From: Phyllobates terribilis
Taxonomy: Eukaryota
DNA length: 64,000 nucleotides
NCBI RefSeq assembly: GCF_046119375.1
Contig: NW_027362762.1
Coordinates: 262,942,001 to 263,006,000, forward strand
Direction of reading: 5' to 3'
Below the pieces are notes generated by a model that worked only from the letters and a program-made list of their open reading frames with translations, did not search any database and had not been told where the DNA came from. The position numbers were made by a program, and so were the translations under genes. Position 1 is the first letter of the stretch. Every line of letters begins with the position of its first letter. Shown here piece after piece: positions 4,399-64,000 of the stretch.

Positions 4399-4796
4399 TA
4401 GTGATAAATGAGCATGCTCACCACTGCTCGGTACTCGCCCGAGCATCTCACAGCTCGACATGCTCGGCGAGTATCTCCGGGATGCTTGAGCGGGAGCTCG
4501 GGTGCCCGCCCCCGCATATTTGGCACTCTTTAGACAGCCAATTAACATGCAGGTATTGCGCACCATGCACTGTAATGCCGTAGCCATGTTGGTTGTGGCA
4601 TTACACTGATTGGCTGACGGCATAGTGACATTGGGTCTATAGAAGACCCGGTGACCCTATGCTTGTCACAGTCTACCCCAGAAACAGGCAGAGTAGGGAG
4701 AGGTGCTGCTCAGTGAGGGATAGAATTGGTGGTTTAATAGTTAGGTATAGGTATTCCACAGCAAAATATATATGCATCTGAAATAACAGTCCTTCT

Positions 4797-7084
4797 TGTA
4801 AAATACCTGGCGGCGTCCTTGCATAGTGGTCCATCTCCCACTGTGCAAGAGCGCGCACTTGATCTCCAATCCAGAATGTCTCTCTGGCTTCCCTCCATGC
4901 TGTCTGTTTGCTTCTGCTTCTGCTGCTTAAGGGCGGTGCCCGATCACTTCCTGCTTTTTGCACCTGCTGCAGGCACACCCCTTGTGCGTCCTCAGCCTAT
5001 TGCTGTCTGTCACCTGCTATTTAAACCAGCTGCTCCAATTAACCCATGCCTGAGCATTGTGTTTCATTCAGTGTGCTCTTTCACTCTGAATGTGCCAGGT
5101 CCTTTTCTGTGTTTGCTTGCCTGCCTTTCCTGGAGGCTGTGTTTCCAGGCCTGTCTGAACACGCTCCTTGCCTGTTCGTTCCACCTTCTAGTGGCCGCAT
5201 ACCTAGACCCGCTCCTGTATCTTGTCTGTCCTGTCTGAACACGCTCCTAGCCTGTTCCTCCCGCCTTCTAGGGGCTGCATACCTAGACCCGCTCCTGTAT
5301 CTTGCTACTGTTTCTGTTCTTGTCTGTATACTCTCCTAGCCTGTTTCCTGAGTTTCTCTTTGTCCGTACCTTTCCTTTTTCTGCAGAGTCTGAACTCGTA
5401 CCTAACTCCTGCTCGTTGTCACTGTACTTCCGTTTGTGAGTTAGTGGTCCTCTCGCTACTTCACTGTAAGTACCCTGTGGGTATCTGGTTCTGCCTTTTC
5501 CTTCCTGCCTGTTCCGTGTGTACAGAGCCCTGTCCCCCCCAGCTCTGCCTTGCTCACTGCTCTGGCGGTTCTAGCCTGCTCTGCCTTGCTCACCGCTCCG
5601 GCGGTTCTAGCCTGCTCTGCCTTGCTCACCGCTCCGGCGGTTCTAGCCTGCTCTGCCTTACTCACCGCTCCGGTGGTTCTAGCCTGCTCTGCCTTTGCTC
5701 ACCGCTCCGGCGGTTCTGGCCTGCTCTGACCCTTTGCTCACTGCTCCGGCAGTCTTGCTCCGCTCTGACCCCTTGCTCACTGCTCCGGCAGTGTTGCTCC
5801 ACTCTGACCCTTTGCTCACCGCTCCGGCAGTCTTGCTCCGCTCTGGCCCTTTGCTCACTGCTCCGGCAGTCTTGCTCCGCTCTGACCCTTTGCTCACCGC
5901 TCCGGCAGTCTTGCTCCGCTCTGACCCTTTGCTCACTGCTCCGGCAGTCTTGCTCCGCTCTGACCCTTTGCTCACTGCTCCGGCAGTCTTGCTCCGCTCT
6001 GACCCTTTGCTCACTGCTCCGGCAGTCTTGCTCCGCTCTGACCCTTTTCTCCTGCTCCGGCAGTATCGCTCCGCTCTGACCCTTTGCTCACCGCTCCGGC
6101 AGTCTCGCTCACCGCTCTGACCCTTTGCTCACTGCTCCAGCAGTCTTGCTCCATTCTGACCCTTTGCTCACTGCTTCGGCAGTCTTGCTCCACTCTGACC
6201 CTTTGCTCACTGCTCCGGCAGTCTCGCTCCGCTCTGACCCTTTACTCACTGCTCCGGCAGTCTCGCTCTGCTCTGCTCCTTTGCTCACTGCTCCGGCAGT
6301 CTCGCTCTGCTCCTTTGCTCACTGCTCCGGCAGTCTCGCTCTGCTCTGACCCTTTGCTCACTGCTCCGGCAGTCTCGCTCTGCTCTGACCCTTTGCTCAC
6401 TGCTCCGGCAGTCTTGCTCTGCTCTGACTCCTTTGCTCACTGCTCCGGCAGTCTCGCTCTGCTCTGACTCCTTGCTCACTGCTCCAGCAGTCTCGCTCAG
6501 CTGACCCTTTGGTCACCGCTCCAGGCGGCCTTGTCCTGCTCTACTCTCGCTCACCGCTCCAGGTGGCCTCGTCCTGCTCTACTCTCGCTCACCGCTCTAG
6601 GCGGTCTCGTCTTGCCCTGCTCTTGCTCACCACTCTGGGCGGCCTTACTCTGCTGTGTTTTTCCGCCACATCTGTGGCTCTGTTCCTGAGTCCCAGTGTG
6701 TACTGGGTCCTATCCCGCCTGTGTTCCTACCTGCTAGTGCCTCCCTGTCTGCACTCTAGCCGTGCTTGCCTGTACCCCCCTGCCTGCATACCCGCCTGCC
6801 TGCATACCAGTCGTGCCTGCCTATACCCACCAGTCTGTGTGCCAGCCTAACCTGTCTGATCCTGTATCCCCCTGTGTGGGTCAACAGCCGTGTCCGGGGT
6901 CTGTCCTGGAGTAGCACCTGGTCCCTCTGCTCGGTTCCTCCATGGTGCACTGGCGTCGTATGCCGTCGTGCGACCCTGGTCGGATCGAGTGAATACCTAG
7001 TTACGCCCCTCCAGGCATTCACTCTCCGGCATGGTCCAGTGGAATCACACGCACACGCCGCTCAGCCCGGGCGTGTGCATTACA
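4797..7084 (+). repeat. 5' LTR of element A (2288 bp), with internal 36/39-bp VNTR
   Basis: TGTAAAATACC...GCATTACA. TATTTAAA at 5018-5025. Tandem CTGCTCCGGCAGTCTTGCTCCGCTCTGACCCTTTGCTCA units at ~5560-6520. Confidence 0.92.
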
Positions 7085-7086
7085 GC

Positions 7087-7096
7087 ATGCTCAGGC
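7087..7096 (+). promoter_or_regulatory. Putative self-priming primer-binding site of element A
   Basis: ATGCTCAGGC lies 2 nt after the LTR end and is the exact reverse complement of GCCTGAGCAT at 5048-5057, 30 nt after the TATA start. Confidence 0.75.
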
Positions 7097-7188
7097 CATG
7101 GTTCCCGTTGAGCCCCACGGCCTTCGCTCTCTGAGACGTTTTCCAGTGAATACGTGCATTAAAAATAAATTAAAAAAAATATATATAT

Positions 7189-8553
7189 ATGTTTTTTTCT
7201 TTAGCTGAGTTCCAGGCGAATTACGCACCCGTCCAGATGGATCTTTCTGCACTCGTTCCTGCGGATCCACCACGGTACTATGGGGATCCAAGACAGAGTC
7301 GTGCATTTGTGGAGCAATGCATGCTACACTTCAAGTTCTACCCTCCTTGTTTTCCCACCGATCGGGCTAAGGTGGGATTCATGATGTTTTACCTAGCGGG
7401 TGATGCCTTGAAATGGATCACCCCCCTATGGGACGCACAGGATCCTATCGTCCTGGATATAATGGCCTTCCTGGTGGCCTTTCTAATGGTCTTCGATGAT
7501 CCTAACCCGGAGGCTCCTGCTGAAGCTTCACTTCCCAATATCCCGGAGCAGCCCCGATGGGTAATGTGTGTGGGTAGCGCACTAGTCCTCCTGCCCGAAG
7601 AGATTACTGCCCATCCAGATTCCACACAGGATGACTACGCTCTTCGGAATACTTCTCCCAACCTCAAGAGGCAGTCCAGACGTGCTAGGCATAGAGGCAA
7701 GCCGTCACGCCTGGGTCTGTCCTCCCAAAGACCTTGTGATCCCAACCTTGAAGTCCCTGCTGAAGCTTCATTTCCCTGTATACCGGAGCAGCCCCTACAG
7801 GTAACATGCGTGGGTAGCGCACCAGTTCTCGTGCCCGAAGAGACTTCTGCCCACCTAGAATCCTCCGGGATACCACCTGATGACAAATGGAGAGAGACTT
7901 CCCTACACCCAGTACCCGATACCTCGTCCGCTCCGTCCTGTGAGCCTGACAATGGGTACCTCAAAGCGGTAGTTAACCCCGAGTCTCTACACCCCTCCGA
8001 CCAGGCGGAGGACCTCCAGTTGTCTCCAGAACCCTTCGGGGTGCTACCTGGTAGCAAATGGACAGAGACTCTCCTATACTCGGTACCTGATACCTCGCCC
8101 GCTTCTTCCAGTGAGTCCGACCTAGTGTACTCCGAAGCAGAGGTTACCCCCGAGTCTCTGCACTCTTCTGACCCGGCGGAGGTCCCCCAGTTGTTTCCTG
8201 AATCCTCCGGGGTACCACCTGATAACAAAGAGACAGTGACTTTTCTACACCTTGTACTTGATACCTCGCCCATTTCATCCTGTGAGCTTGACAAGTTGCA
8301 CCCCGATGCAGAGGAAACCCCCGAGTCTCTGCACCCCTCCAACCCGGCGGAGGGCTTCCAGTTGTCTCTTGAACCCTCTGGGGTGCTACCTGATAATAAG
8401 TGGAGAGAGACTTCCTTGTGTGCTGTTCCTGGTACTCCACCCGTTTCGTCTGTTGCTGAGGATGGCTGGATAGGAGGTAGCATCCTAGCTACCCAGATGA
8501 GACCAGTTTTTCCGGTGGACAGTGGAAGTGATCTCCTTGAAGTGAAGGATTGA
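7189..8553 (+). CDS. Truncated retrotransposon Gag (capsid N-domain, PEG10/RTL/LDOC1-like) fused to Pro/acidic tandem repeats, 454 aa
   Basis: PPRYYGDP..FVEQCMLHF..DRAKVGFMMFYLAGDALKW..FLMVFDDP is followed by two ~41-aa repeats and ~3.5 57-aa repeats. No CCHC, PR, RT or IN. An upstream ATG at 7098 is out of frame across an A/AT/T run. Confidence 0.8.
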   Translation: MFFSLAEFQANYAPVQMDLSALVPADPPRYYGDPRQSRAFVEQCMLHFKFYPPCFPTDRAKVGFMMFYLAGDALKWITPLWDAQDPIVLDIMAFLVAFLMVFDDPNPEAPAEASLPNIPEQPRWVMCVGSALVLLPEEITAHPDSTQDDYALRNTSPNLKRQSRRARHRGKPSRLGLSSQRPCDPNLEVPAEASFPCIPEQPLQVTCVGSAPVLVPEETSAHLESSGIPPDDKWRETSLHPVPDTSSAPSCEPDNGYLKAVVNPESLHPSDQAEDLQLSPEPFGVLPGSKWTETLLYSVPDTSPASSSESDLVYSEAEVTPESLHSSDPAEVPQLFPESSGVPPDNKETVTFLHLVLDTSPISSCELDKLHPDAEETPESLHPSNPAEGFQLSLEPSGVLPDNKWRETSLCAVPGTPPVSSVAEDGWIGGSILATQMRPVFPVDSGSDLLEVKD

Positions 8554-8616
8554 CCCTCGAATTCCCTGCGGAATATTCTGGCAGGCCTGAAGAAGAGGGG
8601 GCGTAAGGGGGGGTAT

Positions 8617-10715
8617 TGTAACATACCTGGCGGTGTCCTTGCATAGTGGTCCATCTCCCACTGTGCAAGAGCGCGCACTTGATCTCCAATCCAGAATGTC
8701 TCTCTGGCTTCCCTCCATGCTGTCTGTTTGCTTCTGTTTCTGCTGCTTAAGGGTGGCGCCCGATCACTTCCTGCTTTTTGTACCTGCTGCAGGCACACCC
8801 CTTGTGCGTCCTCAGCCTATTGCTGTCTGTCACCTGATATTTAAACCAGCTGCTCCAATTAACCCATGCCTGAGCATTGTGTTTCATTCAGTGTGCTTTT
8901 TCACTCTGAATGTGCCAGGTCCTTTTCTGTGTTTGCTTGCCTGCCTTTCCTGAAGGCTGTGTTTCCAGGCCTGTCTGAACACGCTCCTTGCCTGTTCGTT
9001 CCGCCTTCTAGGGGCCGCATACCTAGAAACGCTCCTGTATCTTGTCTGTCCTGTCTGAACACGCTCCTAGCCTGTTCCTCCCGCCTTCTAGGGGCTGCAT
9101 ACCTAGACCCGCTCCTGTATCTTGCTACTGTGTCTGTTCTTGTCTGTATACTCTTCTAGCCTGTTTCCTGTGTTTCTCTTTGTCTGTACCTTTCCTTTTT
9201 CTGCAGAGTCTGAACTCGTACCTAACTCCTGCTCATTGTCACTGTACTTCCGTTTGTGAGTTAGTGGTCCTCTTGCTACTTCACTGTAAGTACCCTGTGG
9301 GTATCGGGTTCTGCCTTTCCCTTCCTGCCTGTTCCGTGTGTACAGAGCCCTGTCCCCCCCAGCTCTGCCTTGCTCACCACTCCGGCGGTTCTAGTCTGCT
9401 CTGCCTTACTCACTGCTCCGGCGGTTCTAGCCTGCTCTGCCTTGCTCACCGCTCCGGCGCTTCTAGCCTGCTCTGCCTTACTCACCGCTCCGGCGCTTCT
9501 AGCCAGCTTTGCCTTTGCTCACCGCTCCGGCAGTTCTGGCCTGCTCTGACCCTTTGATCACTGCTTCGGCAGTCTTGCTCCGCTCTGACCATTTGCTCAC
9601 TGTTCCGGCAGTCTTGCTCCACTCTGACCCTTTGCTCACTGCTCCGGCAGTCTTTCTCCGCTCTGACCCTTTGCTCACTGCTCCGGCAGTCTTGCTCCGC
9701 TCTGAGCCTTTGCTCACTGCTCCGGCAGTCTTGCTCCGCTCTGACCCTTTGCTCACTGCTCCAGCAGTCTTGCTCCGCACTGACCCTTTGCTCACTGCTC
9801 CAGCAGTATCGCTCCGCTCTGACCCTTTGCTCACTGCTCCGGCAGTCTCGCTCCACTCTGACCATTTGCTCACTGCTCCGGCAGTCTTGCTCCGCTCTGA
9901 CCATTTGGTCACTGCTCCGGCAGGCTCGCTCTGCTCTGACCCTTTGCTCACTGCTCCGGCAGTCTCGCTCTGCTCTGACTCCTTTGCTCACTGCTCCGGC
10001 AGTCTCGCTCCACTCTGACCATTTGCTCACTGCTCCGGCAGTCTTGCTCCGCTCTGACCATTTGGTCACTGCTCCGGCAGGCTCGCTCTGCTCTGACCCT
10101 TTGCTCACTGCTCCAGCAGTCTCGCTCAGCTCTGACCCTTTGCTCACCGCTCCAGGCGGCCTTGTCCTGCTCTACTCTTGCTCACTGCTCCAGGCGGCCT
10201 CGTCCTGCTCTACTCTCGCTCACCGCTCTAGGCGGTCTCGTCTTGCCCTGCTCTCGCTCACCACTCTGGGCGGCCTTACTCTGCTATGTTTTTCCGCCAC
10301 ATCTGTGGTTCTGTTCCTGAGTTCCAGTGTGTACTGGGTCCTATCCCGCCTGTGTTCCTACCTGCTAGTGCCTCCCTGTCTGCACTCTAGCCGTGCTTGC
10401 CTGTACCCCCCTGCCTGCATACCCGCCTGCCTGCATACCAGTCGTGCCTGCCTATACCCACCAGTCTGTGTGCCAGCCTAACCTGTCTGTTCCTGTATCC
10501 CCCTGTGTGGGTCAACAGCCGTGTCCGGGGTCTGTCCTGGAGTAGCACCTGGTCCCTCTGCTCGGTTCCTCCTTGGTGCACTGGCGTCGTATGCCGTCGT
10601 GCGACCCTGGTCGGATCGGGTGAATACCTAGTTACGCCCCTCCAGGCATTCACTCTCCGGCACGGTCCAGTGGAATCACACGCACACACCGCTCAGCCTG
10701 GGCGTGTGCATTACA
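8617..10715 (+). repeat. Second LTR of element A (2099 bp)
   Basis: Direct repeat of 4797-7084 with scattered substitutions and a different VNTR copy number. Preceded by the purine tract GAAGAAGAGGGGGCGTAAGGGGGGGTAT. Confidence 0.92.
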
Positions 10716-11099
10716 GCATGCTCAGGCTATGGTTCCCGTTGAGGACTTCTGAGGACTGATACAGCTGCATATATAAATCCTGATGATAGCAGAAGTTAGG
10801 CAGGCAGAGTTTGTTAACACTGTATACAGCAGAATAGGGTCCATTGCATGTTCTGTCTACTGCTGCTCTTACAGATTTCCATAGCTTTAGATATCAGGGC
10901 TAATTTTTTTTTTTACTCTTAATCCTGATTATTTGCTTAAAAAAGCAATACAGTACACAATTTTACTTCTCCATTTGCTTTTTGGCAGAATACAGCCAGA
11001 TTTTTGAATGGGGGGTTGCATGCACGTGTCTTCTTGCGCAAAGTGTCATCTGGAGCTAAGTGGCAGTTACTACATCGGCCATGGACTAACACCCGTCTG

Positions 11100-11589: not shown

Positions 11590-14500
11590 CCATTCAATAC
11601 TTACTGATACTTACTCTCTTTAAGCTATGTTTCTGTTTGTTTTCACTCTCTCCCCAATAGTCCTCAACTTTCTACTAACCCCCCTAATCCCTGCACCTAG
11701 TAATAAACTCTTCATCTCTCCCTCCATCCTCCCCATCCATCTCACCTCCTCCTCAGAACTATTCCTCAATATTCACTCCTGTATCTCCAAACACAGACAG
11801 ACACTTCATGCCCTCTCCTGCTCCCACCTGCTAACAATTTCCCTGCTACTTCTCACTGTTGGCTACATCCCTCCAAGTCCTGGTCCTCCTCACCACATCC
11901 CCACAGTCACTTCCACCTTCTATCTACGATCTATCACAAACTCTCGCAACCTTTCTAACCTCATAGCCATTCACCCAGTCCCCAATTCCCCAGTCGCACT
12001 AACAGGATCTCTATGGAACGCTTTCTCCGTCTGCAACAAACTTCCCTACATTCATGATCTTTTCATCACTAACAAACTTTCCTTCCTTGCCATCACCGAA
12101 ACCTGGCTCACCTCCTCTGAAAAAGCCTCACCAGCTGCACTCTTGTACAGCAGATTCCACCTTTCCCATACCCTCTGCCCCCGCAGCAAACATGGTGGAG
12201 GCGTAGGTTTTCTCCTGTCCGATACTTGCACCTTCACCCAAATCCCACTGCCATCCTCCGTTACTCTCCCCTCTTTTGAGGTTCACTGTGTGCGCATCTA
12301 CTCCCCCTCCAACCTCCAACTGGCTGTCATTTACCGCCCCCCAGGGCCAGCCACCACCTTCTTCAACCACTTCACCACCTGGCTGCTTCATTTCCTTTCC
12401 ACTGACATTACCACTATCATCATGGGCGACTTCAACATCCCCATTGACACATCCCACTCATCTGTCTCTAAACTCCTATCCCTCACTTCCTCCTTCGGCC
12501 TTGCTCAATGGTCTTTCTCAGCCACTCACAAAGATGGCCACACACTGGACCTTGTCTTCACCCGCCTCTGTTCCCTATCAAACCTCTCTAACTCTCCTCT
12601 CCCTCTTTCTCACCACAACCTACTTACATTCTCTGCCCTCTCCTCTCCAGGTCCACAATCCCCACTTCACAAAATTGCCCACCCTCGCAGAAATCTCAAA
12701 CACCTTGACCTATACTCACTCTCTGATTCCCTCCTCTCTCTTACAGATATAAATTCCTTACACAATTCAGATGTTGCTGTTGCTTTATATAACACCACAA
12801 CAGCTGCAGTGTTAGAACCTTGCTGTTAGGTTTTTTTTCCTTTGCTGGTCACATGACCTTGTTGGCCTATTTAATCCTGCTCCGCCCTTCTGGCTTTGCT
12901 GGACTTCATTGTATATCTACTTTCTAGCTAGCCTGTGCTCTGTATCTAGCTCTGTTAGTTTGCTTGGTCTACGGACCTCTATGTTCTATCTATTTTGTTT
13001 GTTCGTCTGTCTGCTACTATTTCTGTTAGGAGGTGTCCCATATTCCTCCCAGTCCTTAGTACTTGTAGGGATTCCCTCCCCACATCTATAGGTCCCCGTA
13101 CAGACTAGATTAGGACTTTAGCAGGTCTGATCGCAGGATCAGGTTCCCTGTTACATCGTAGGGATTCAGCTGAGTCCTATAGTAGGGACAGATCTCCTCT
13201 CTTTCCTTAGCTTTGGTAGCAGAACATAACATGCAGCTCTCGATTCAGTCGCCCCTCTCACACATACCAAAGCTTGCACAATCAAAAGGCAACCCTGCCA
13301 CACCAACCTGACTAAAGAACTGGGATGGGCCTCCATGGTTGCTGAGTGAAGATGGAAAAGGTCCCATTCCAACGAGCACTTCATTGCATTCAAACAATTC
13401 CTCACTATTTTCAAGTCCAAATTCACTGCAGCAAAACAAACCTACTTCCTATCCTCCCTGTCTCACAACCCTAAACAGCTATTCAACACTTTCAATTCTC
13501 TCCTCCATCCCCCAGCGCCTCCTCCCTCTCCTCTCAGCTGAAGAATTTGCTTCATTCTTCAAGCAGAAGATTGACATCAGACAAAGCTTTTACCTAAAGT
13601 TCCCACAGCCCCTTCTCATATCTACTCAACCATCATCATCCAAAACCAACTTCTCCAACATTACAGAAGATAAAGTTTCCTCTTTACTCTCCAAATCACA
13701 CCTCACCACCTGTGAACTTGACCCAATCCCATCCCACCTCATCTCTAACCTTACCAGTCTTCATCCCAACCCTAACCCACCTCTTCAACCTATCACTAAC
13801 AACTGGTGTCTTCCCCTCATGTTTCAAACATGCCTCAATCACACCCATCCTCAAAAAGCCCACCTTGACCCATTCTCTCTGACTAGATATCGCTCCATAT
13901 CACTTCTCCCCTGTGCCTCAAAACTACTGGAACAACACGTCCACCTTGAACTGTCCTCCCACCTCTACTCCTGCTCCCTCTTCGACCTTTTACAAGCTGG
14001 CTTCTGACAGCATCACTCCACTGAAACTGTCCTGACTAAAGTCACCAACGACCTACTAACCGCCAAATCCAAGTTACACTACTTTGACTTCCTCCTCCTG
14101 GACCTGTCATCTGCCCTCGACACAGTGGACCCAATTACTACAGACTCTCATCTCTTGGCATCACGGACTTGGCCCTATCTTGGATCTCTTCATACCTAAC
14201 AGACAAGACATGCAGCATCTCCCACTCACACACCACCTCCTTATCTCACCCCATATCTGTCGGTGTTCCCCAAGGCTCAGTTCTATGGCCCCTTCTCTTC
14301 TCCATCTACACCTTTGGCCTGGGACAGCTCATAGAGTCTCATGGCTTTCAGTATCACTCCTATGCTGATGACACACAGATCTATATCTCTGGACCTGATA
14401 TCAACTCCTTACTAACCAGAATCACACAATGCCTGTCTGCTATTTCATCCTTCTTCTCTGCTAGATTTCTAAAACTTATCATGGATAAAACAGAATTCAT

Positions 14501-15356
14501 CAGCTTTCCCCCACCTCACTCAATGCCCCCATCTGACCTATCCATCAAAGTTAATGTCTGCCCACTATCCCCAGTCCCACAAGCTCTCTGCCTCAGGGTA
14601 ACCCTGGACTCTGATCTCTCCTTCAAACCACAAATCCAAGCCCTTTCCACTTCCTGATGACTCCAACTCAAAAATATCTCCCAGATCTGCACATTCCTCA
14701 GCAAAGACTCTGCCAAAACGCTAGTGCACGCACTCATCATCTCTCGCCTCAACTACTGCAACCTCCTGCTCTGTCGCCTCCCTTCTAACACTCACGCACC
14801 CCTCCAATCTATCCTAAACTCCGCTGCCCGACTAATCCACCTGTCCCCCCACTATTCCCCAGCCTCTCCCCTCTGTCAGTCCCTTCACTAGCTCCCCATT
14901 GCCCAGAGACTTAAGTTCAAGACCCTAACCTTGACATACAAAGCCACCCACAACCTGTCTCTTCCATACATCTGTGACCTAGTCTCCGGGTACTTACCTT
15001 CACGCAACCTCCCATGCACCCCCCCTACTCTGGAACTCTATACCCCAAAATATCAGACTCTTGCCTACCATGGAAACCTTCAAAAGGAACCTGAAGACCT
15101 ACCTCTTCCGACAAGCGTACAACCTGCAGTAACCACTGCTCCACCATACTGCTGCACAACCAGCTCCACCATCACCTATGGTATCCTAACCCATCCCTTG
15201 TAGATTGTGAGCCCTCACAGGCAGGGTCCTTTCTCCTCCTGTACTTTGCTGACTCATTTTGTTCAAGACTATTATAAGTGTTTTTTGCTTTGCATAACCC
15301 TTTTTTCACATGTAAATCGCCATGGACTAAATGGTGCTATAATAATAAATAATAAT
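11590..15356 (+). mobile_element. L2-clade LINE, near full ORF2, decayed, interrupted by a solo LTR
   Basis: APE motifs ITETWL, GGGVG, VIYRPPG, GDFNI and THKDGHTLDLVF. RT motifs [27 protein letters not shown] and YADDTQIY. 3' end CATGGACTAAATGGTGCTATAATAATAAATAATAAT. Multiple stops and frameshifts. Confidence 0.9.
12810..13231 (+). mobile_element. Solo LTR of family B (422 bp) in the L2
   Basis: TGTTAGAACC...CATAACA, near-identical to the LTRs at 16493 and 20159. 5-bp TSD TGCAG (12805-12809 and 13232-13236). Confidence 0.95.
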
Positions 15357-16260: not shown

Positions 16261-16926
16261 GGACTGACAATAAAACATTCCAAAACTAAGCTAAATTGAA
16301 TTTTCCTGGAAGAAATGTCAAGAAACATTCTTTGAAGGGTCATGACTTGTATAGAAGGCCAAATAAATTAGAAAAAAAACTATAAAACACACAGCAGGAT
16401 CTTTAGTATAAAAACCAGACTTGCCAATGTAACCACTTAATCCTTGCAAGCTTCAACACAATGTTCACAAGATAGACAGCAGCAGTGGTCGCTGTTATGT
16501 TCTGCTACCAAAGCTAAGGAAAGAGAGGAGATCTGTCCCTACTATAAGACTCAGCTGAATCCCTACGATGTAACAGGGAACCTGATCCTGCGATCAGACC
16601 TGCTAAAGTCCTAATCTAGTCTGTACGGAGACCTATAGATTTGGGGAGGGAATCCCTACAAGTACTAAGGACTGGGAGGTATATGGGACACCTCCTAACA
16701 GAAATAGTAGCAGACAGACGAACAAACAAAATAGATAGAACATAGAGGTCCGTAGACCAAGCAAACTAACAGAGTTAGATACAGAGCACAGGCTAGCTAG
16801 AAAGTAGATATACAATGAAGTCCAGCAAAGCCAGAAGGGCGGAGCAGGATTAAATAGGCCAACAAGGTCATGTGACCAGCAAAGGAAAAAAAACCTAACA
16901 GCAAGGTTCTAACAGTACCCCCCCTT

Positions 16927-19900
16927 CTAAGAGGATCCTCCGGATCCCCTAGGACCAGGCTTATCAGGAAATCTCCTGTGAAACGCTCTGATAAGTCTGG
17001 ACGCGGAAACATCATCTGACCTCACCCAAGAGTTATCCTCGGGTCCGAAACCTTTCCAGGCCACAAGATACTGCAAACTACCTCTATACCGTCTAGAGTC
17101 AAGGATGCGAGAAATTTCATATTCCCCGTCCTCCACCACCGGAGGAACAGAGGCAGAGGCGTCACCATCCGACACAAGAGCTTTTTTTAACAGAGAGACA
17201 TGAAAGACCGGATTAATTCTCCAGGAGGTAGGAACCTCCAACCTAACAGCAGATTGGTTGACAACCTGAAGCACCTTAAAGGGCCCTACAAACTTGGGAC
17301 CCAATTTCTTAGAAGGAATCCTCAACCGCAGATTCCTAGAGGACAACCAAACCATGTCACCAACAGCGAACAAAACCTCCTGTCGTTTCCTATCAAAGTA
17401 GTCTTTAGATTTTCTGTTGGCCTCCTGAAGATTACCACGCACATCCGTCCAAACTCTTTCCAAATCACCGGCTATGGGAGAAAAACTGCGAGACAAGGCA
17501 TCCGCCTTAACATTCTTAGTACCAGGGATGTAAGTAACGGAGAAATTAAACCGCGAGAAAAACAGTGCCCACCTAGCCTGACGGGCATTCAGGCGCTTGG
17601 CAGCGTCAAGATATATCAGATTTTTATGATCCGTAAGAACCTGAACGGGAAATTCCGCACCTTCCAAGAAGTGGCGCCAGTGTTCAAATGCGAGTTTAAT
17701 AGCCAATAATTCCCGATTACCAATATCGTAATTCAATTCAGTCTCCGAAAATTTTTTTGAAAAAAATGCACAGGGATGTAATCCATCCCCGTTATCCTGA
17801 GACAATACTGCGCCAACCCCCACAGAGGAAGCATCAACCTCAACCAAAAACGGCCTAGTAACATCAGGCTGCATAAGGATGGGAGCAGAGGTGAACCTCT
17901 CCTTGAGATACACAAAAGCTTCAATGGCCTCAGAAGACCACTGAACCGCATCAGCACCTTTCCTGGTGAGATCAGTCAGAGGTTTGACAATACTAGAAAA
18001 ATTTTTTATGAATTTTCTATAGTAATTGGCGAAACCCAAAAACCTCTGTATCGATTTCAAACCAATAGGCCTAGGCCATTCCTGCACAGCCCGAACCTTA
18101 ACCGGATCCATCTCAAAACCTTTGCTGGAGATAATGTAGCCCAAAAAACTAATTCTCTGTACAGCGAACTCACATTTCTCCAGCTTAGCAAAAAGCGAAT
18201 TGTCCATTAATAACTGTAATACCTCACGCACGCTCCGCCAATGAGACTCCAGATCTGGCGAATAAATCAAAATGTCATCCAAATACACAACCACATTTTT
18301 ACCGATCAAAGGTCTAAGGATGTCATTAATCAGATTCTGAAAAAATGCAGGAGCATTAGTAAGACCAAAAGGCATAACCAGATTCTCAAAATGACCCACA
18401 GGAGTGTTAAAAGCAGTCTTCCATTCATCACCCTCCTTCATGCGCAACAGATTGTATGCCCCCTTAAGGTCAATTTTAGAGAACCACTTGGCCCCCAATA
18501 ACTGGTTAAACAGATCAGGAATCAATGGCAGTGGGTAAGGATTGCGTACCGTAATTTTGTTAATCTCACGAAAATCCAGACAAGGACGTAAACCGCCGTC
18601 CTTTTTTTTTACAAAAAAAAATCCAACCGCCACAGGAGACTTAGAGGGCCTAATGTGACCGGCGGCCAAACTTGTCTGTATGTATTCCTCCAAAGCCTTC
18701 CTCTCAGGAATAGTAAGGTTAAATAAACGACTTTTAGGAAGAGTCGCTCCAGGGACAAATTCAATAGAACAATCATAGTCTCTATGAGGAGGCAAAACCT
18801 GCGATTCTTTCTCAGAAAAAACTCTCCAAAAATCCTGAATAGGAACAGGCAATTCTCCCCTATCCAAAGCTGCAATACGCCCGTTACAACACTTGTCATA
18901 ACATTTATGGCTCCAGGATTTAATTTCACTGGTAGACCAATCCAGTACAGGATTGTGAAATTTTAACCAGGGCAAACCCAATATTACTGGAGAAGGCAAG
19001 TTATTCAACACTACCAAATCCAATTTCTCATGGTGAACACCATTAATAGTGAGAGGAAATTCACTGACCTTGAGAGTAATATTCTTCAAAGGGGAGCCAT
19101 CCACAGAAACCACAGCAATGGGGGATGATAAAGGTTCAGGTTTTAAATTGAGTTTTTCCACAAATCCCCCATCAATAACATTCAGTGTAGACCCGCAATC
19201 AACAAACACCCGAAATTCCATTAATTTTTCCTGAGCAATCGTGGAAGCAGCTAAAAATATACCCTTGGAATTTAAACAGGCAATACGGGCGTGACTGACC
19301 ATTTTTTTTTCTTTCTTCATACGAAGCTCACAGCCTTTAATCAAATGACCAGATTTCCCGCAATAGAAACACAAGCCTTCTGAAAAACGACGGTGTTTTT
19401 CTTGAGAGCGAGGTGCCACCGATCCAATCTCCATCGGTTCACCACTGTTAGTACACACATTATCATAACCAGAAACTGACATAGCAGAGGATTTGCTCTC
19501 ATTAACCCTAGCACGCAGTCTTCTATCCACCCGTATAGCTAATTGCATAGCCTGTTGCAAATCCTCAGGTGTAGGATAAGCAATTAGCAGGTCTTTAACC
19601 TTTTCACTGAGCCCAGCAAGAAATAGACTTTTCAGAGCAGAATCGTTCCACCCTGTTTGAGTGGACCAACGACGAAAATGTGTACAATATTTTTCCATAT
19701 TACCTGATCCTTGTTTTAAACGTCTCAACTCAGTCTCAGCTGATGCCACACGGTCAGGATCATCATATAATAGTCCTAAAGCAGAAAAAAAACTATCCAC
19801 TGATCTGAAGCATGTATCACTAGGTTGCAAAGAAAAGGCCCACTCCTGAGGCTCTTTGCGCAAAAGTGACATTATGAACCCTACGCGCTGGGATTCATCC

Positions 19901-20109
19901 CCAGAGGACTTGGGTCTCAAACGAAAATACAATAAGCAAGCATTTTTAAATGAAAAAAATTCTCGATGTTCACCAAAAAATAAATCCGGCAAACATACCT
20001 TAGGCTCCAAGAAATATGCTCCAGGACAGTTACTCACGTGCTGACGGAGCTCGGCCACTTCCAGAGAGAGTCCCTGCAGGTGTTTAGCCAAATCCTGAAC
20101 CGACACCAT
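16927..20109 (-). CDS. Gag-protease-RT-RNase H-GPY/F-chromodomain polyprotein, 1060 aa, lacking IN zinc finger and catalytic core
   Basis: Gag (RVGFIMSLLRKEPQEWA), CCHC CFYCGKSGHLIKGC, PR FVDCGST, RT YLDDILIY, and RNase H VDASSVGVGAVL..TDHKNL..KADALSR. This is joined directly to VGDMVWLS..GPKFVGPF..FHVSLLK and the chromodomain YEISRILDSR..YLVAWKGFGPEDNSW. Confidence 0.93.
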   Translation of the reverse strand: MVSVQDLAKHLQGLSLEVAELRQHVSNCPGAYFLEPKVCLPDLFFGEHREFFSFKNACLLYFRLRPKSSGDESQRVGFIMSLLRKEPQEWAFSLQPSDTCFRSVDSFFSALGLLYDDPDRVASAETELRRLKQGSGNMEKYCTHFRRWSTQTGWNDSALKSLFLAGLSEKVKDLLIAYPTPEDLQQAMQLAIRVDRRLRARVNESKSSAMSVSGYDNVCTNSGEPMEIGSVAPRSQEKHRRFSEGLCFYCGKSGHLIKGCELRMKKEKKMVSHARIACLNSKGIFLAASTIAQEKLMEFRVFVDCGSTLNVIDGGFVEKLNLKPEPLSSPIAVVSVDGSPLKNITLKVSEFPLTINGVHHEKLDLVVLNNLPSPVILGLPWLKFHNPVLDWSTSEIKSWSHKCYDKCCNGRIAALDRGELPVPIQDFWRVFSEKESQVLPPHRDYDCSIEFVPGATLPKSRLFNLTIPERKALEEYIQTSLAAGHIRPSKSPVAVGFFFVKKKDGGLRPCLDFREINKITVRNPYPLPLIPDLFNQLLGAKWFSKIDLKGAYNLLRMKEGDEWKTAFNTPVGHFENLVMPFGLTNAPAFFQNLINDILRPLIGKNVVVYLDDILIYSPDLESHWRSVREVLQLLMDNSLFAKLEKCEFAVQRISFLGYIISSKGFEMDPVKVRAVQEWPRPIGLKSIQRFLGFANYYRKFIKNFSSIVKPLTDLTRKGADAVQWSSEAIEAFVYLKERFTSAPILMQPDVTRPFLVEVDASSVGVGAVLSQDNGDGLHPCAFFSKKFSETELNYDIGNRELLAIKLAFEHWRHFLEGAEFPVQVLTDHKNLIYLDAAKRLNARQARWALFFSRFNFSVTYIPGTKNVKADALSRSFSPIAGDLERVWTDVRGNLQEANRKSKDYFDRKRQEVLFAVGDMVWLSSRNLRLRIPSKKLGPKFVGPFKVLQVVNQSAVRLEVPTSWRINPVFHVSLLKKALVSDGDASASVPPVVEDGEYEISRILDSRRYRGSLQYLVAWKGFGPEDNSWVRSDDVSASRLIRAFHRRFPDKPGPRGSGGSS

Positions 20110-20147
20110 GATGGAACAAAAAAAATCTTTCCTTAGAGAATTTACAG

Positions 20148-20156
20148 GCTGGACTT
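20148..20156 (-). promoter_or_regulatory. Putative self-priming primer-binding site of element B
   Basis: Minus-strand AAGTCCAGC lies 2 nt after the 5' LTR and is complementary to GCTGGACTT, which starts at 20492, 30 nt after TATTTAA (20522). Confidence 0.72.
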
Positions 20157-21590
20157 ACTGTTATGTTCTGCTACCAAAGCTAAGGAAAGAGAGGAGATCT
20201 GTCCCTACTATAAGACTCAGCTGAATCCCTACGATGTAACAGGGAACCTGATCCTGCGATCAGACCTGCTAAAGTCCTAATCTAGTCTGTACGGAGACCT
20301 ATAGATTTGGGGAGGGAATCCCTACAAGTACTAAGGACTGGGAGGTATATGGGACACCTCCTAACAGAAATAGTAGCAGACAGACGAACAAACAAAATAG
20401 ATAGAACATAGAGGTCCGTAGACCAAGCAAACTAACAGAGTTAGATACAGAGCACAGGCTAGCTAGAAAGTAGATATACAATGAAGTCCAGCAAAGCCAG
20501 AAGGGCGGAGCAGGATTAAATAGGCCAACAAGGTCATGTGACCAGCAAAGGAAAAAAAACCTAACAGCAAGGTTCTAACAGTCGCTTCCCTAGACACGGC
20601 ACATCATGGTTTGATATGAGCACCCAGTGCCAGAGGCGAAGCCATCCACAATTTCCATATCTCAGGAATTGTATTTGGTAGACTGGCTGCTGTGGGGATT
20701 CCTACTAACTTGAGAGCATCGTCGTCAATGTTCACAAGGTAGACAGCAGCAGTGGTTGCTCCCCTAGACAACGAGCAAACTTCTTCGTGATGGTAGAAGC
20801 CACCATCTCCTTAGCTTGCTGCTTGGTACTTTTCTGTGGGAATGAGCTTGGCTCCAAGCAGCCAGGCATATGCAGCGAATTGCACGTCATGGTTTGGTAT
20901 GAGTACCCAGTACCAGAGGCGAAGCCATCCACAATTTCCATGTCTCAAGAATTTTATTTGGTAGACTGGCTGCTGTGGGGTTTCTACTCACTTGGGAGCA
21001 TCGGTAGTCAAAACAGGAAGCGTTTCCATTTAAAGGTCCATTCTGGTTTATTGCAGTGTCATGAACTAGCCATAAGCAATGGAAAATAAACAGCCTTCTG
21101 TTCAGGCAAACAAAGTAAACAGTTCTTTAGGCAAAGTCTATTGAGAACCAGTCCTAGTCACACGGCTGTAAAGCATCCAGTACACCGGCTCAGTTTGCAG
21201 ATACCACACAGAAGGACCTCTTCCTCCTCACACAGAGACCATGTGTCAAACAATGGACTCCATTTTACCTAGCTAACCACACCCAGAGGTGATGTATGTG
21301 GGTAACCAGACCCGCCCATCTCTTTGGCTACCTGTAAAACCTGGGCCTAGATGCACCAAACAATCCTCTTATTGCTTATCTGCTGTAGACCAATATTCCA
21401 GGATTATATCACAGGCAACAGCCATCTTTGTGACACATACCTACCATCCACTATGTGTCCATTAGCCACCTTACATTGCCAAAACATTAGTTTCTCACAA
21501 AGGAGCTGAAGACACTGAGTGGCAGTAGGTGCAAGTTTCTCCAGCATGAGCTGTTTGTTAAATATCAGAGGGAGAACAGAATTGGGCTTT

Positions 21591-22680: not shown

Positions 22681-23305
22681 CTTTAAAGAAAAGAACATTG
22701 ACCAGTAAGCAGATGGAATCCTTGAGAACCAATTAGTGAGATTAATTCCCTTTGTCTGTTTGAATAAACTGCCTTAAAATGTTTAGAGAAAAATCAATAT
22801 TCTGTTAGTTTCAGAATGGACCTGTGTAAATGGGGAGAAATAACATCCGAAATAACAAATAATTTTAAAACTTTTTTTGTAAAGCTACGTGGAATTTCAA
22901 TATTAACAGATAACTGTTTTTCCAAAAAGAGACTATAGACAGAACTTTTATTAACCCCTTTCCAGAGTCTGTTCTCTTTAATAGGTTAAGCTATATTATG
23001 TAGAAATTCAGCTGTTTGAATGATTATGCGGCTGTGCATCATATGTAGATACACTAGATAGAAGGCAGAACCCTTTTTAACTGCATTTTAACATTACCAT
23101 ATAAACAGTGTTCAGAAAGTTCCATATATACACTGTGTGCAGAATTATTAGGCAAATTAGTATTTTGATCACATGATACTTTTTATACATCTTGTCCTAC
23201 TCCAAGCTGCATAGGCTTGAGAGCCAACAACTACCAATTAAGTAAATCTGGTGATGTGCAACTCTGTAATGAGGAGTGGTGTTGACTAATGACATCAACA
23301 CCCTA

Positions 23306-24561
23306 CACTGTGTTCCAAATTATTATGCAAATAATATTTTCTCAGATTTTCCCAAATTACCTATATGAATTGGAGTCATTGTAATTTTCCAGTCAAATAA
23401 CTATTAGAGTACAATTGAAAGGTTTTTGTACAAACTGCCTATGATAACAGTATATTTTTTAAAAAATAAAAAACTCAAACTGCACTCAAAATGCATGTTC
23501 CAAATTATTATGCACAGCAGAGTTTTCAACCTTTTCATTTTAATAAAGAACAAAAAAATGGTCATTTTTGAAATTATAAGCATTAGCAGGTTATTACAAA
23601 CTGAAATCAAACAGTTTTCAACTCAAAACTTTATTCTAGGTGATGTTACATTTGCACATAGGACCCCTTGTTCGAAAGGAGCTTCTGAACTCTCTCGTCC
23701 ATTGAATTTGTCAGGTTTGGATGGTTTCTGCTTCAATCGTTTTGCATGAGGACAGAATACCCTCCCAGAGCTGTTGCTTAGATGTGAACTGCCTCCCGCC
23801 ATCATAGACACTCCTTTTGATGATGCTCCAGAGGTTCTCAATGGGGTTGAGGTCAGGGGAGCATGGGTGCCACACCATAAGTTTGTCCCCTTTTATGCCC
23901 ATAGCAGCCAGAGATGCAGATGTGTCTCATGCTGCACATAACACATCTGCATCTCTGGCTGCTATGGGCATAAAAGGGGACAAACTTATGGTGTGGCACC
24001 CATGCTCCCCTGACCTCAACCCCATTGAGAACCTCTGGAGCATCATCAAAAGGAGTGTCTATGATGGCGGGAGGCAGTTCACATCTAAGCAACAGCTCTG
24101 GGAGGGTATTCTGTCCTCATGCAAAACAATTGAAGCAGAAACCATCCAAAACCTGACAAATTCAATGGACGAGAGAGTTCAGAAGCTCCTTTCGAACAAG
24201 GGGTCCTATGTGCAAATGTAACATCACCTAGAATAAAGTTTTGAGTTGAAAACTGTTTGATTTCAGTTTGTAATAACCTGCTAATGCTTATAATTTCAAA
24301 AATGACCATTTTTTTGTTCTTTATTAAAATGAAAAGGTTGAAAAATCTGCTGTGCATAATAATTTGGAACATGCATTTTGAGTGCAGTTTGAGTTTTTTA
24401 TTTTTTAAAAAATATACTGTTATCATAGGCAGTTTGTACAAAAACCTTTCAATTGTACTCTAATAGTTATTTGACTGGAAAATTACAATGACTGCAATTC
24501 ATATAGGTAATTTGGGAAAATCTGAGAAAATATTATTTGCATAATAATTTGGAACACAGTG
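23306..24561. mobile_element. Foldback Tc1 derivative: two inverted 3' halves (620/621-bp arms, 15-nt loop)
   Basis: TA TSD. TIRs CACTGTGTTCCAAATTATTATGCAA. 23306-23925 is the reverse complement of 23941-24561. Each arm encodes the transposase C-terminus (WHPCSPDLNPIENLW). Same family as 52707-54069. Confidence 0.93.
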
Positions 24562-59775: not shown

Positions 59776-60942
59776 TGTAACGGGTCCGGGAGGCGGAACC
59801 TCTGAGCTACTATACAAGGGGGCGGCCCTTGTAAGGGAGCGGGTGGCAGTCTCTGGATGAATGGACAGGGAGATACGGCAAGTGATCAGGGCAGTCTCTG
59901 GGTGAACGGACAGGGAGATACGGCAAGTGATCAGGGCAGTCTCTGGGTAAGGGGTAGGTACGACCTGTGATGGCAGAGCCTCCGGGTAGGCTAGCAGGCA
60001 GATGGTAGATGGGTGCTCCCAGGTGAGCAAGCGAGAGTCTCTGGAATAGCAGGTGGTCACGGCACGTGACGGCGGGGCCTCCGGGCTGGCAGGCAGGCAG
60101 GTAACGGAGAAGCGCTCCCAGGTGAGCGGGCAAGAGTCTCTGGAATAGCTGGTGGTCACCGCACGTGACAACGGGACCTCCGGGCTGGCAAGCAGGCAGG
60201 TAACGGAGATGCGCTCCCAGGTGAGCGGGCAAGAGTCTCTGAGATAGCTGGTGGTCACAGCACGTGACAACGGAGCCTCCGGGCTGGCAAGCAGGCAGGT
60301 AACGGAGAAGCGCTCCCAGGTGAGCGGGCAAGCTGGTCCATAGACAGACTGACCGGAGTAGTAAAGCAGACCGTCGGACCTCAGGCAAGCAGGCAGGTAG
60401 CTGATATGCGCTCCCAGGTGAGCGGGCAGGCTGGTCCTTAGACAGACTGACAGGAGTAGTAAGGCAGACCGTCGGACCTCAGACTGGCAGACAGGTAACA
60501 AGTATTCAGGCAGGAATCAGGCAGGTAACTGGCAGGTAACTGGCAGGTAACTGGCAACGGGACCTGAGGGCTGAAGCACAGGTGAGACACAGGTGCAAAC
60601 AACATTGCTCGGGCACCTCCATTTTGGAGGAGGTGCCTTTTATATGATGAAGTCCTCCGGCCATTGGCCGGGGACTCTTTAGGGCGGCGCGCGCGGCCCC
60701 TTTAAGAGGAGGGGAGCACGCGCGCGCGCGCCCTAAGCACAGGGGCCGGGAAGGAGCGCGCGCCGAGAGCAGAGCAGGAGGAGGACGCCGGGACGGAGCG
60801 CGCGCTGACAGCAGAGCGGGGAGAGGACGCCGGGCAGGAGCGCGCGCTGACAGCAGAGCGGGGAGAGGACGCCGGGCACGGAGCAGAGCGGTGAGGGGAG
60901 CAGCGTCCCTGCCTAGCAGAGGGCAGGGACGCCAGCGCTACA
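59776..60942 (-). repeat. 3' LTR of element C (1167 bp) with 99-bp and ~40-bp internal repeats
   Basis: TGTAACGGG...GCGCTACA. Minus-strand TATAAAA at 60644-60638. Confidence 0.93.
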
Positions 60943-63185
60943 GTACCCCCCCCTTTAGGCCCCCCCTTTTTTAGGCCAGACAGAAATTTAGCTAGGATGA
61001 GAGGGGCATGGATGTTCTCCCGGGGCTCCCACGTTCTCTCCTCAGGACCAAACCCCCTCCAATCTACCAGAAAAAAGGTCTTTCCTCTTACCCTTTTGCT
61101 GGCAAGAATGTTCTCTACCTCAAACTTGTCCTCAGCAGAAACCAGAGCAGGAGGCGTACCTGTAGACTTAGAAAAAGAGTTAAGTACCACAGGTTTGAGG
61201 AGAGATACATGGAAGGAGTTAGGGATCCGTAAGTTGGCCGGGAGTTTCAATTTATAGGTTACCGGGTTGATCTGACCGATGACCACCAGTGGGCCGATGA
61301 ACCGAGACCCTAACTTATAGGAAGGGATCTTGAGTCGGACATATTTGGACGAGAGCCAGACTTTATCCCCAGGACGGAATTGAGGAGGGTCCATCGCTAA
61401 ATGCTGCCAGGGGGCAGCAGGTACTGGCAGAGGAAGAAGGCGGCCGGCCGACAGGTGTCTCGGAACTTTGTTGCGGGCGCAGGACACACAGGCAGAAACA
61501 AAGTCCATAACATCCTTGTGCAGGTTAGGCCACCAGTAGTGTCGGGTAATAAGCTGGAGGGTCTTTTTCCGACCGGCGTGGTCAGCTAGTTTAGACGAAT
61601 GACCCCAGTGTAGGATTCTCTCCCGATCAGGTACCGATACGAACGTCTTACCAGGAGGGAGACAATTTAGACTCACGGGAGCCACCTGCATTACTCTGGC
61701 GGGATCGATGGGGCAGTCACATGGTCTATGAGGTGGTGATGTCTCTGCCTCCTCCTTAACAAAGACATCAGCACTAGACCAATAAGGAATCGGAAGTCCA
61801 GGTAGATTAGCTGGGATAGGAGAGGGACGGACGGAATGGACGGGAACCAGGCAGGTTTTATGACAGGCCTGTCCCCAGTGAAGGACTTCTCCGGTTTGCC
61901 AGTCAAGCACGGGTGCATGTCTCTGGAGCCAAGGCAGACCTAGCAAGAGGGCGTGAGGGAGACCAGGCAGAACGTGAAAGGAGATACTCTCTGAATGCAG
62001 CATTCCCACCTGCAGAGTAATGGATTCGGTGATGAATTGGATGGGGCGAGGTAAGAGGCCCCCATCCACGGCAACAACAGACAAGGGTACAGCCAGAGGT
62101 TTGGTGGGGATGCGGAATTTCTCCACCAGGGACTGTGAAATAAGATTTCCGGCTGCTCCAGAGTCAAGTTGGGCTAGTTCGGAATAACGATTCTCCCCGC
62201 AGATGATTGAGACTGACAACAGCAGGGATGGAGAGGATTTATTTTTGTCTAGATCGACCCCTCTGAGTGAACCTAGATACAGGCGTTCTCCCGACCTCTC
62301 CGGGCAGGCACGGATCAGATGCTCCTTACTGCCACAGTAGAAGCAGCTCCCCTCGGCACGGCGGAAATCCTGACGGGATTTGACCATCTTGGTCTGGTCG
62401 ACCTGCATAGGCTCAGGAGAGTGTACCTGTGGAGAAACGGAAGGAATGACGGGTTCCTGGAAAGTAGGAGCTAGACGTGGAATCCTTCTCTCACGGGTGA
62501 CCTCTTTGGCACGCTCCTGGAACCGTAGGTCAATCCGGGTGGCAAGGGTTATTAGATCATCGAGAGTGGTAGGAATGTCCCGACCAGCAAGTTCATCTTT
62601 AATACGGCCGGACAGACCCTCCCAGAAGACGGATACCAGGGCTTCGTTATCCCAGGCCAGCTCCGAGGCAAGGGTACGGAACCGTATGGCATATTGGCCC
62701 ACGGTGAGGCTTCCCTGACGGAGGCGAAGCAGAGAAGATGCGGATGAGGTCCTCCGTCCGGGTTCGTCGAAGGCTTTCCGGAAAGCCATGAGAAAGGCAG
62801 GCAAGTCGGACACCAGGGGATCTCCTCTCTCCCATAGAGGATTTAGCCAGGCCAGGGCCTCCCCGGTGAGATGGGACATGATAAAGGCAATTTTGGCTCG
62901 GTCGGAGTTAAACTGGTGGGATAATAGTTCAAAATGCAGGGTGCACTGATTTATGAAGCCCCGAGCCAGGACGGAGTCGCCTCCGAAGCGAGGAGGTGCA
63001 GAGAGCCGGGGTCCGGAAAAGGATACCATGGTACTGGCGGAGGTTGTTGGTGGATCAGACAGAGTGTTCAGGCGAGTATTAACATTCCGCAGGTGACCCA
63101 GGATGGTCTCCTGTTGGGACCTCTGACGGGACAGTTCAAGACAGAGGTCCGAGAGCGAGGGAGCTTGGGTGCCACCGGGTTCCAT
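60702..63185 (-). CDS. Gag-protease-IN zinc finger-GPY/F-chromodomain fusion, 827 aa (RT, RNase H and IN core deleted)
   Basis: Gag (DRAKIAFIMSHLTGEALAW), CCHC CFYCGSKEHLIRAC, PR LDSGAAGNLI, RT start PPHRPCDCPID, IN HHCC (HSSKLADH..CVSC), PWQHLAMD joined to PPQFRPGDKVW, and the chromodomain FEVENIL..LVDWRGFGPEERTWEP. Reads through the PPT into the 3' LTR. Confidence 0.92.
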   Translation of the reverse strand: MEPGGTQAPSLSDLCLELSRQRSQQETILGHLRNVNTRLNTLSDPPTTSASTMVSFSGPRLSAPPRFGGDSVLARGFINQCTLHFELLSHQFNSDRAKIAFIMSHLTGEALAWLNPLWERGDPLVSDLPAFLMAFRKAFDEPGRRTSSASSLLRLRQGSLTVGQYAIRFRTLASELAWDNEALVSVFWEGLSGRIKDELAGRDIPTTLDDLITLATRIDLRFQERAKEVTRERRIPRLAPTFQEPVIPSVSPQVHSPEPMQVDQTKMVKSRQDFRRAEGSCFYCGSKEHLIRACPERSGERLYLGSLRGVDLDKNKSSPSLLLSVSIICGENRYSELAQLDSGAAGNLISQSLVEKFRIPTKPLAVPLSVVAVDGGLLPRPIQFITESITLQVGMLHSESISFHVLPGLPHALLLGLPWLQRHAPVLDWQTGEVLHWGQACHKTCLVPVHSVRPSPIPANLPGLPIPYWSSADVFVKEEAETSPPHRPCDCPIDPARVMQVAPVSLNCLPPGKTFVSVPDRERILHWGHSSKLADHAGRKKTLQLITRHYWWPNLHKDVMDFVSACVSCARNKVPRHLSAGRLLPLPVPAAPWQHLAMDPPQFRPGDKVWLSSKYVRLKIPSYKLGSRFIGPLVVIGQINPVTYKLKLPANLRIPNSFHVSLLKPVVLNSFSKSTGTPPALVSAEDKFEVENILASKRVRGKTFFLVDWRGFGPEERTWEPRENIHAPLILAKFLSGLKKGGPKGGGTVALASLPSARQGRCSPHRSAPCPASSPRSAVSARSCPASSPRSAVSARSVPASSSCSALGARSFPAPVLRARARVLPSS

Positions 63186-63186
63186 G

Positions 63187-63196
63187 GCCCGAGCAA
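63187..63196 (-). promoter_or_regulatory. Putative self-priming primer-binding site of element C
   Basis: Minus-strand TTGCTCGGGC lies 2 nt after the 5' LTR and is complementary to GCCCGAGCAA, which starts at 60614 in the 3' LTR copy, 30 nt after the TATA start (60644). Confidence 0.75.
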
Positions 63197-63198
63197 AC

Positions 63199-64000
63199 TG
63201 TAACGGGTCCGGGAGGCGGAACCTCTGAGCTACTATACAAGGGGGCGGCCCTTGTAAGGGAGCGGGTGGCAGTCTCTGGATGAATGGACAGGGAGATACG
63301 GCAAGTGATCAGGGCAGTCTCTGGGTGAACGGACAGGGAGATACGGCAAGTGATCAGGGCAGTCTCTGGGTAAGGGGTAGGTACGACCTGTGATGGCAGA
63401 GCCTCCGGGTAGGCTAGCAGGCAGATGGTAGATGGGTGCTCCCAGGTGAGCAAGCGAGAGTCTCTGGAATAGCAGGTGGTCACGGCACGTGACGGCGGGG
63501 CCTCCGGGCTGGCAGGCAGGCAGGTAACGGAGAAGCGCTCCCAGGTGAGCGGGCAAGAGTCTCTGGAATAGCTGGTGGTCACCGCACGTGACAACGGGAC
63601 CTCCGGGCTGGCAAGCAGGCAGGTAACGGAGATGCGCTCCCAGGTGAGCGGGCAAGAGTCTCTGAGATAGCTGGTGGTCACAGCACGTGACAACGGAGCC
63701 TCCGGGCTGGCAAGCAGGCAGGTAACGGAGAAGCGCTCCCAGGTGAGCGGGCAAGCTGGTCCATAGACAGACTGACCGGAGTAGTAAAGCAGACCGTCGG
63801 ACCTCAGGCAAGCAGGCAGGTAGCTGATATGCGCTCCCAGGTGAGCGGGCAGGCTGGTCCTTAGACAGACTGACAGGAGTAGTAAGGCAGACCGTCGGAC
63901 CTCAGACTGGCAGACAGGTAACAAGTATTCAGGCAGGAATCAGGCAGGTAACTGGCAGGTAACTGGCAACGGGACCTGAGGGCTGAAGCACAGGTGAGAC
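63199..64000 (-). repeat. 5' LTR of element C (partial)
   Basis: Direct repeat of 59776-60577. Confidence 0.95.

Follow-up and report, generated by a model that had tools for sequence, protein, structure and literature searches.

Chromodomain-type Ty3/gypsy elements of Phyllobates terribilis probably prime reverse transcription with their own RNA 5' end

Introduction

Three LTR elements, here called A, B and C, lie in a 64,000-nucleotide stretch of Phyllobates terribilis DNA (the window), and none of them has a TGG primer site behind its 5' LTR, which raises the question of what primes their reverse transcription. [quoted passage not shown] Self-priming is called a 'common feature' of the Tf1/sushi group, together with a pretzel structure, in a section of a preprint (bioRxiv 10.1101/2022.12.06.519325), and passages elsewhere place it in elements 'from yeast and vertebrates' (PMC6317226) or 'from fungi to vertebrates' (PMC4600332). 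V-clade chromoviruses (sushi-ichi, Amn-ichi/-ni/-san) occur in fish and amphibians, as stated in part of PMC2774666. A preliminary description of element A had invoked Tf1 self-priming with the first 11 nt and its proposed extension to the Tf1/sushi group, in agreement with the passages of PMC7175516, PMC6317226 and PMC4600332.

Results

Classification of the elements

The elements have the Ty3/gypsy layout of LTRs, polypurine tract and 5-bp target duplications (Table 1). B and C, each internally deleted, jointly show every Ty3/gypsy domain except the integrase core, and both have, at the C-terminal end of the integrase, a chromodomain (PF00385; E 6e-11 in B and 1e-11 in C). No domain match was found for the integrase core in the window copy of B, or for reverse transcriptase (RT) in the window copy of C. 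The gag products of A and C are 46% identical, and the gag-pol products of B and C 30-41%. For the RT-RNase H of B, the best solved structure was Ty3 RT, and the closest named relatives were frog proteins followed by fish proteins, with fungal and algal ones more distant. In a midpoint-rooted RT tree of 43 rows, which holds no named Tf1 or sushi-ichi row and excludes matches under ~150 residues, B and C together with two further families of the same genome, D and F, grouped with Xenopus and fish proteins (100/99); the window copies of C and A, having no RT, were placed through relatives. This frog/fish-type group was sister to two fungal proteins (100/99), and seven distant RTs, including four from control elements with TGG, fell outside. 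Judged by these domain, identity and tree data, A, B and C are related chromodomain-type Ty3/gypsy elements of the fungal/vertebrate chromovirus branch (Tf1/sushi, V-clade).

Table 1. Coordinates of the parts of elements A, B and C in the window
Element	Feature	Position	Strand	Remarks
A	5' LTR	4797..7084	+	2288 nt, TGT...ACA, contains 39-nt tandem array
A	TATA-like box TATTTAAACC	5018..5025	+	30 nt upstream of predicted +1
A	Predicted self-primer GCCTGAGCAT	5048..5057	+	First 10 nt of the RNA, from the predicted start
A	Putative PBS ATGCTCAGGC	7087..7096	+	2 nt past LTR; exact complement of 5048-5057
A	gag-like remnant ORF	7174..8553	+	Weak DUF4939 match, below cut-off; 46% identity to C gag
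A	Polypurine tract	8596..8616	+	-
A	3' LTR	8617..10715	+	Primer copy at 8868-8877
A	Extra 30 nt beyond 3' LTR	10716..10745	+	GC, second PBS copy, 16 nt of leader, GA; then 5-bp target duplication
B	5' LTR	20159..20580	-	422 nt; identical to 3' LTR; target duplication GCGAC
B	TATA-like start TATTTAATCC	20522	-	30 nt before predicted +1
B	Predicted self-primer GCTGGACTT	20484..20492	-	9 nt; predicted +1 = 20492
B	Putative PBS AAGTCCAGC	20148..20156	-	LTR end 20159, then GT spacer, then site
B	Single ORF	16927..20154	-	gag, protease, RT, RNase H, Tf2-type SH3, chromodomain
B	3' LTR	16493..16914	-	422 nt
C	Putative PBS TTGCTCGGGC	63187..63196	-	GT spacer, 2 nt past 5' LTR
C	ORF, internally deleted	60702..63308	-	gag, protease, integrase zinc finger, SH3, chromodomain
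C	3' LTR	59776..60942	-	1167 nt; target duplication ATGGG
C	TATA-like start TATAAAAGGC	60644	-	3'-LTR copy; 30 nt before primer
C	Predicted self-primer GCCCGAGCAA	60605..60614	-	3'-LTR copy

Structure of A, B and C

A is inserted in a host repeat, with the target duplication CTTCT at 4792-4796 and in the right-end region 10716-10750. Its 5' LTR ends in ...TTACA at 7084, followed by GC and then the PBS, and the 12 nt downstream of the LTR were identical in 29 of the 30 A junctions fetched. The 30-nt overrun at the right end could have arisen when repair joined an aberrant cDNA end, or it may be a tandem copy that has been cut down. No pol was found in A, the gag remnant being the only coding part left, and A therefore represents a non-autonomous family; the same LTR-gag remnant-LTR layout recurs in two more copies (G000 C1:708.88-708.90 Mb and C5:454.91-454.92 Mb). 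The A LTRs, ~2 kb long, are enlarged by the 39-nt tandem array, and because this array sits inside R-U5, the loop between primer and site also reaches ~2 kb. Closely spaced matches suggest that A-family elements form tandem arrays as well. By eye, the A LTR contains an acceptor-like motif and a GTAAGT donor-like motif (5372-5386 and 5466-5471, +), and another acceptor-like motif precedes the gag remnant (7190-7204, +); splicing between such putative donor and acceptor motifs would take the PBS out of that transcript.

B belongs to an abundant and very young family: each of the 150 genome matches to its RT that were scored was 100% identical at the protein level, and many frames are open over ~1375 codons. 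Two solo B LTRs, 99% identical to those of B, lie in the window at 12810-13231 (+) and 25792-26214 (-), the former splitting a LINE (11624-14657) in which remnants of an endonuclease and an RT are left. The spacer and PBS of B together read GTAAGT.

The 5' LTR of C extends beyond the window end, its primer copy starting 26 nt outside (predicted +1 at 64026). Throughout the C group the TATA box is separated from the predicted +1 by an inverted repeat, GCACCTCC...GGAGGTGC (window 60614-60639, -; loci L341-L360), and a GGAGGT-like motif upstream of +1 was also seen in several other families. One C-family copy outside the window (L058 region, G000 C2, ~262,814,600) changes frame at its gag-pol junction, which contains GGGAAAC and resembles the -1 frameshift site of PEG10. 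The window further holds DNA-transposon remnants (23304-24563, 36415-38057, 43847-45011, 30990-33130 and 48680-52047), namely BED/hAT-like ORFs and Tc1/mariner-like ORFs accompanied by inverted repeats; units of 32 nt and 110 nt are arrayed in tandem at 38982-40113 and 47190-48699, respectively.

The PBS is complementary to a segment at the predicted transcription start

In A, B and C, a segment of 9-10 nt located 30 nt past the TATA start is the exact reverse complement of a segment 2 nt past the 5' LTR, and all six motifs named in the preliminary description were recovered in place and in perfect complementarity. Its remark that no TGG site follows the 5' LTRs held for these three and for every chromovirus junction read. 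The A and C primers differ at 2 of 10 bases. Across the families compared, primer and site lie 330 to 2040 nt apart, and the sequence between them is unalignable from one family to another. The site ends 11 nt past the LTR in B, D and F and 12 nt past it in A and C, as fits primers of 9 or 10 nt over a 2-nt spacer; D and F may alternatively have a 10-nt primer over a 1-nt spacer.

We assessed chance with 3000 dinucleotide shuffles of each of the three LTRs. A match of equal length anywhere in the shuffled LTR appeared in 31 (A), 32 (B) and 8 (C) per 3000, i.e. 0.3-1%; once a TATA-like hexamer was required 28-32 nt upstream of the match, none of the 3000 shuffles of any LTR qualified (0/9000 overall).

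The first base of the primers is a G preceded by a pyrimidine, and it lies 30 nt past the TATA start in A, B and C and 31 nt past it in F; in A the preceding base is T, giving a pyrimidine-purine start at 5048. Mouse CAGE data, as summarized in a passage of PMC1779604, put the optimal TATA spacing at -31 or -30, and the 30-nt spacing is informative because it is ordinary promoter geometry. From TATA spacing and the pyrimidine-G step, which predict the start positions, we infer that the primer segment is the transcript 5' end. Three raw RNA runs yielded 1-4 partial reads each, and the one contig set cannot show starts, as contigs do not. When six families were folded from the predicted +1, the primer helix was present in the minimum-energy fold of all six, with a pair probability of at least 0.86 in five and ~0.19 in the C ensemble. 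A leader-U5 'pretzel' arm exceeded shuffles only in B (z -2.6) and not in A, C, C2, D or F354, three F loci being too short; a short R-U5 extension after the primer was present in the predicted folds, yet not above shuffles.

Further families of the same genome

From the 10.6-Gb genome we read ~1.26 Mb of contiguous sequence, window included, plus targeted loci. An exact 9-10-nt match at offset 1-2 was found in 12 of 16 chromovirus entries and, in corrected orientation, in two more; of the remaining two, an insertion splits one, and the PBS of the other carries a point change. Among seven control LTR elements that have TGG close to the end of the LTR, no self-match reached 8 nt. Additional primer/site pairs came from C2 (GCCTGTGCAA), C4 (GCCTGCGCAA), D (GTCGGTGAAA) and F (GCCGGTGATA). 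Three generalizations of the preliminary description were dropped: the families are not 'unrelated', given the gag and gag-pol identities above; the primer does not always begin with GC, as it does in A, B and C, since that of D begins with GT and the constant base is the +1 G; and its distance from the TATA start is not always the exact 30 nt of A, B and C, since in the F group the G stands at 31 nt. In D and C2 the spacing depends on which T is chosen as the start.

A pattern search that left the site open returned 1074 junctions of F type and 5474 of C type, whereas the reversed patterns gave 1 and 2; among the matches listed (100 F-type, 100 C-type) a few site types were common, and single changes were scattered besides. 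Among 20 upstream stretches of ten kb, just one (L316) offered a clean LTR-PBS junction, most others being nested or truncated. Ten predictions were written beforehand: four proved correct, one was off by a base and one was not found, in a tally that leaves out the L215 group and L268 and with predictions for D and C2 that were not blind. The correct ones concern the L181, L185 and L192/L270 groups and L184 (1 of 34 matches, after 0 of 9 earlier). For L183 the prediction missed the commonest form by one base, and the predicted form occurred once among the 100 matches listed; for L196 the predicted form was absent from 10 matches.

Primer and site covary among copies

The preliminary description had read the paired differences among A, B and C as compensatory covariation, and this persisted in larger alignments. 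We fetched 20 F and 20 C junctions, deliberately over-sampling rare site variants, and located each primer by upstream anchors, independently of the PBS. Nine F copies (seven with no usable 5' LTR anchor, two with internal LTR deletions) and four C copies (no anchor) were excluded. In the C group (n=16 copies), 147 of 160 cells pair, compared with a permuted mean of 136.0, a value reached by 2 of 20,000 permutations. Position 6 is T-A in 12 copies and A-T in 4, with zero exceptions, and position 4 alternates between C-G and T-A with three exceptions, although this C/T-G/A change can also come from two separate CpG decays. In the F group (n=11 copies), 91.7% of cells were paired (reached by 2 of 500 shuffles) and the covariation score was 0.222 (0 of 500 shuffles), while slid controls were 20-56% paired; permutation of whole copies gave a modest result, with 93 of 110 paired and 487 of 20,000 permutations reaching it. 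As kin share variants, these counts are inflated and the independent changes are fewer than they imply. Copies with a rare PBS variant did not carry the matching primer change, which is what damage after insertion would produce.

We also compared 12 primer/site types, a table whose perfect diagonal arises by selection and in which four pairs are drawn from different copies. At seven of nine positions two or three kinds of base pair occur, and none of the primers fully fits the site of another type. Since the families are related, the paired differences are true compensatory changes rather than convergence.

Discussion

Because the primer site is the exact complement of the segment 30 nt past the TATA box, A, B and C very likely prime reverse transcription with their own RNA 5' end, as Tf1 does. 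RNA polymerase II would start at the G ~30-31 nt past the TATA start, and the first 9-10 nt, whose complementarity is exact, are predicted to fold back on the site 2 nt past the LTR. The element's RNase H would then cut behind the paired bases, as in Tf1, freeing a 3'-OH from which RT would extend over the 2-nt spacer and U5-R into minus-strand strong-stop DNA. A, lacking pol, would depend on an autonomous relative for these enzymes. The spacer side in B and C (ACA, then GT) mirrors the polypurine-tract side (AC, then TGT), and the mirrored bases could give two symmetric ends that are trimmed by 2 nt at integration.

The pairing might instead be a structural element serving packaging, dimerisation or translation control by closing the R-U5 domain, with another RNA or a protein as primer. 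Long-range pairings of the 5' leader are common among retroelements, an ATG follows 1 nt past the PBS in A, C and C2, and the RNA runs, with 1-4 partial reads each, contained no priming product. A purely structural role is nevertheless improbable: in every family the helix takes up precisely the position of a PBS, 1-2 nt behind the LTR, and starts at the predicted +1; nothing else stands out as a candidate primer; and Tf1 primes with the same geometry.

We give still less weight, indeed very little, to a host RNA as the partner of the site (the 3' end of a tRNA, a piece of one, or a different small RNA), with the LTR match secondary. Half-tRNA priming does exist in some copia lineages (mentioned in part of PMC6317226), and our comparison with host tRNAs reached Lys(TTT) genes only (63 matches in an Rfam tRNA search; 30 loci fetched, all Lys(TTT)). 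A mature tRNA end, however, requires the TGG that is absent here, and a conserved host RNA is disfavoured as partner because the site varies at 7 of 9 positions over the 12 types while following the element's own LTR. Equally slight is the probability of a chance match or of a functionless local inverted duplication in a common ancestor: a 9-10-nt match arises somewhere in the LTR in 0.3-1% of shuffles and the families do share ancestry, but match plus TATA spacing was seen in 0/9000, both sides changed together between subfamilies, and they stand 330 to 2040 nt apart across sequence unalignable between families.

Self-priming independent of tRNA, as the preliminary description had proposed, is the best reading of the retained covariation, the chromodomain Ty3/gypsy membership and the absence of TGG. 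The trait is already described for the Tf1/sushi group, vertebrates included, of which A, B and C would be new members with good comparative support, and the accepted view of that group is unchanged by them. Butler et al. 2001 is the source cited for group-wide self-priming, including that of vertebrates. Our literature search, which covered few subscription papers, found no experimental test of self-priming in a vertebrate element; in the literature covered, experimental proof is limited to fission yeast, and the vertebrate case rests on sequence inspection. The abundant young frog families, with start and cleavage predictions precise to the base and natural compensatory variants, make the claim testable in a vertebrate. 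They also supply an annotation rule that locates +1 and PBS in elements that tRNA-based tools would miss.

In tRNA-primed elements, plus-strand synthesis copies the tRNA end. If it copies the primer in self-primed elements, the site would be rewritten from the primer every cycle, so covariation would arise without waiting for a second mutation. The PBS has been described as a target of tRNA-fragment silencing (in a passage of PMC7472051), which self-primed elements would be expected to escape. It is possible, though we regard it as rather doubtful, that in vertebrate chromoviruses at large the site is rewritten from the RNA 5' end each cycle and primer and site drift together freely, giving at least a dozen primer types in one frog genome on a fixed frame (+1 G, site end 11-12 nt past the LTR), even across the 2-kb loop of a non-autonomous family, in a lineage beyond tRNA-fragment silencing.

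Comparison with known systems

Like Tf1/Tf2 of Schizosaccharomyces pombe, the frog elements have a PBS complementary to the predicted RNA start, no tRNA site and an integrase chromodomain. The primer is 11 nt in Tf1 but 9-10 nt in the frog elements, with loops of 330-2040 nt, and the three-duplex pretzel of Tf1 is only partly supported. Tf1 and B have one ORF, in contrast to the GGGAAAC junction with frame change in C. Self-priming was shown by experiment for Tf1 and is predicted from sequence for the frog elements. With the vertebrate V-clade of the Tf1/sushi group they share RTs that group with Xenopus and fish proteins (100/99), in a tree that holds no named sushi-ichi or Amn sequence. The tRNA-primed Ty3/gypsy controls of the same genome resemble them in their TG...CA-type LTRs, polypurine tract and related RT, but differ in having TGG near the LTR end and no self-match of at least 8 nt, and the four controls tested fall outside the chromovirus clade.
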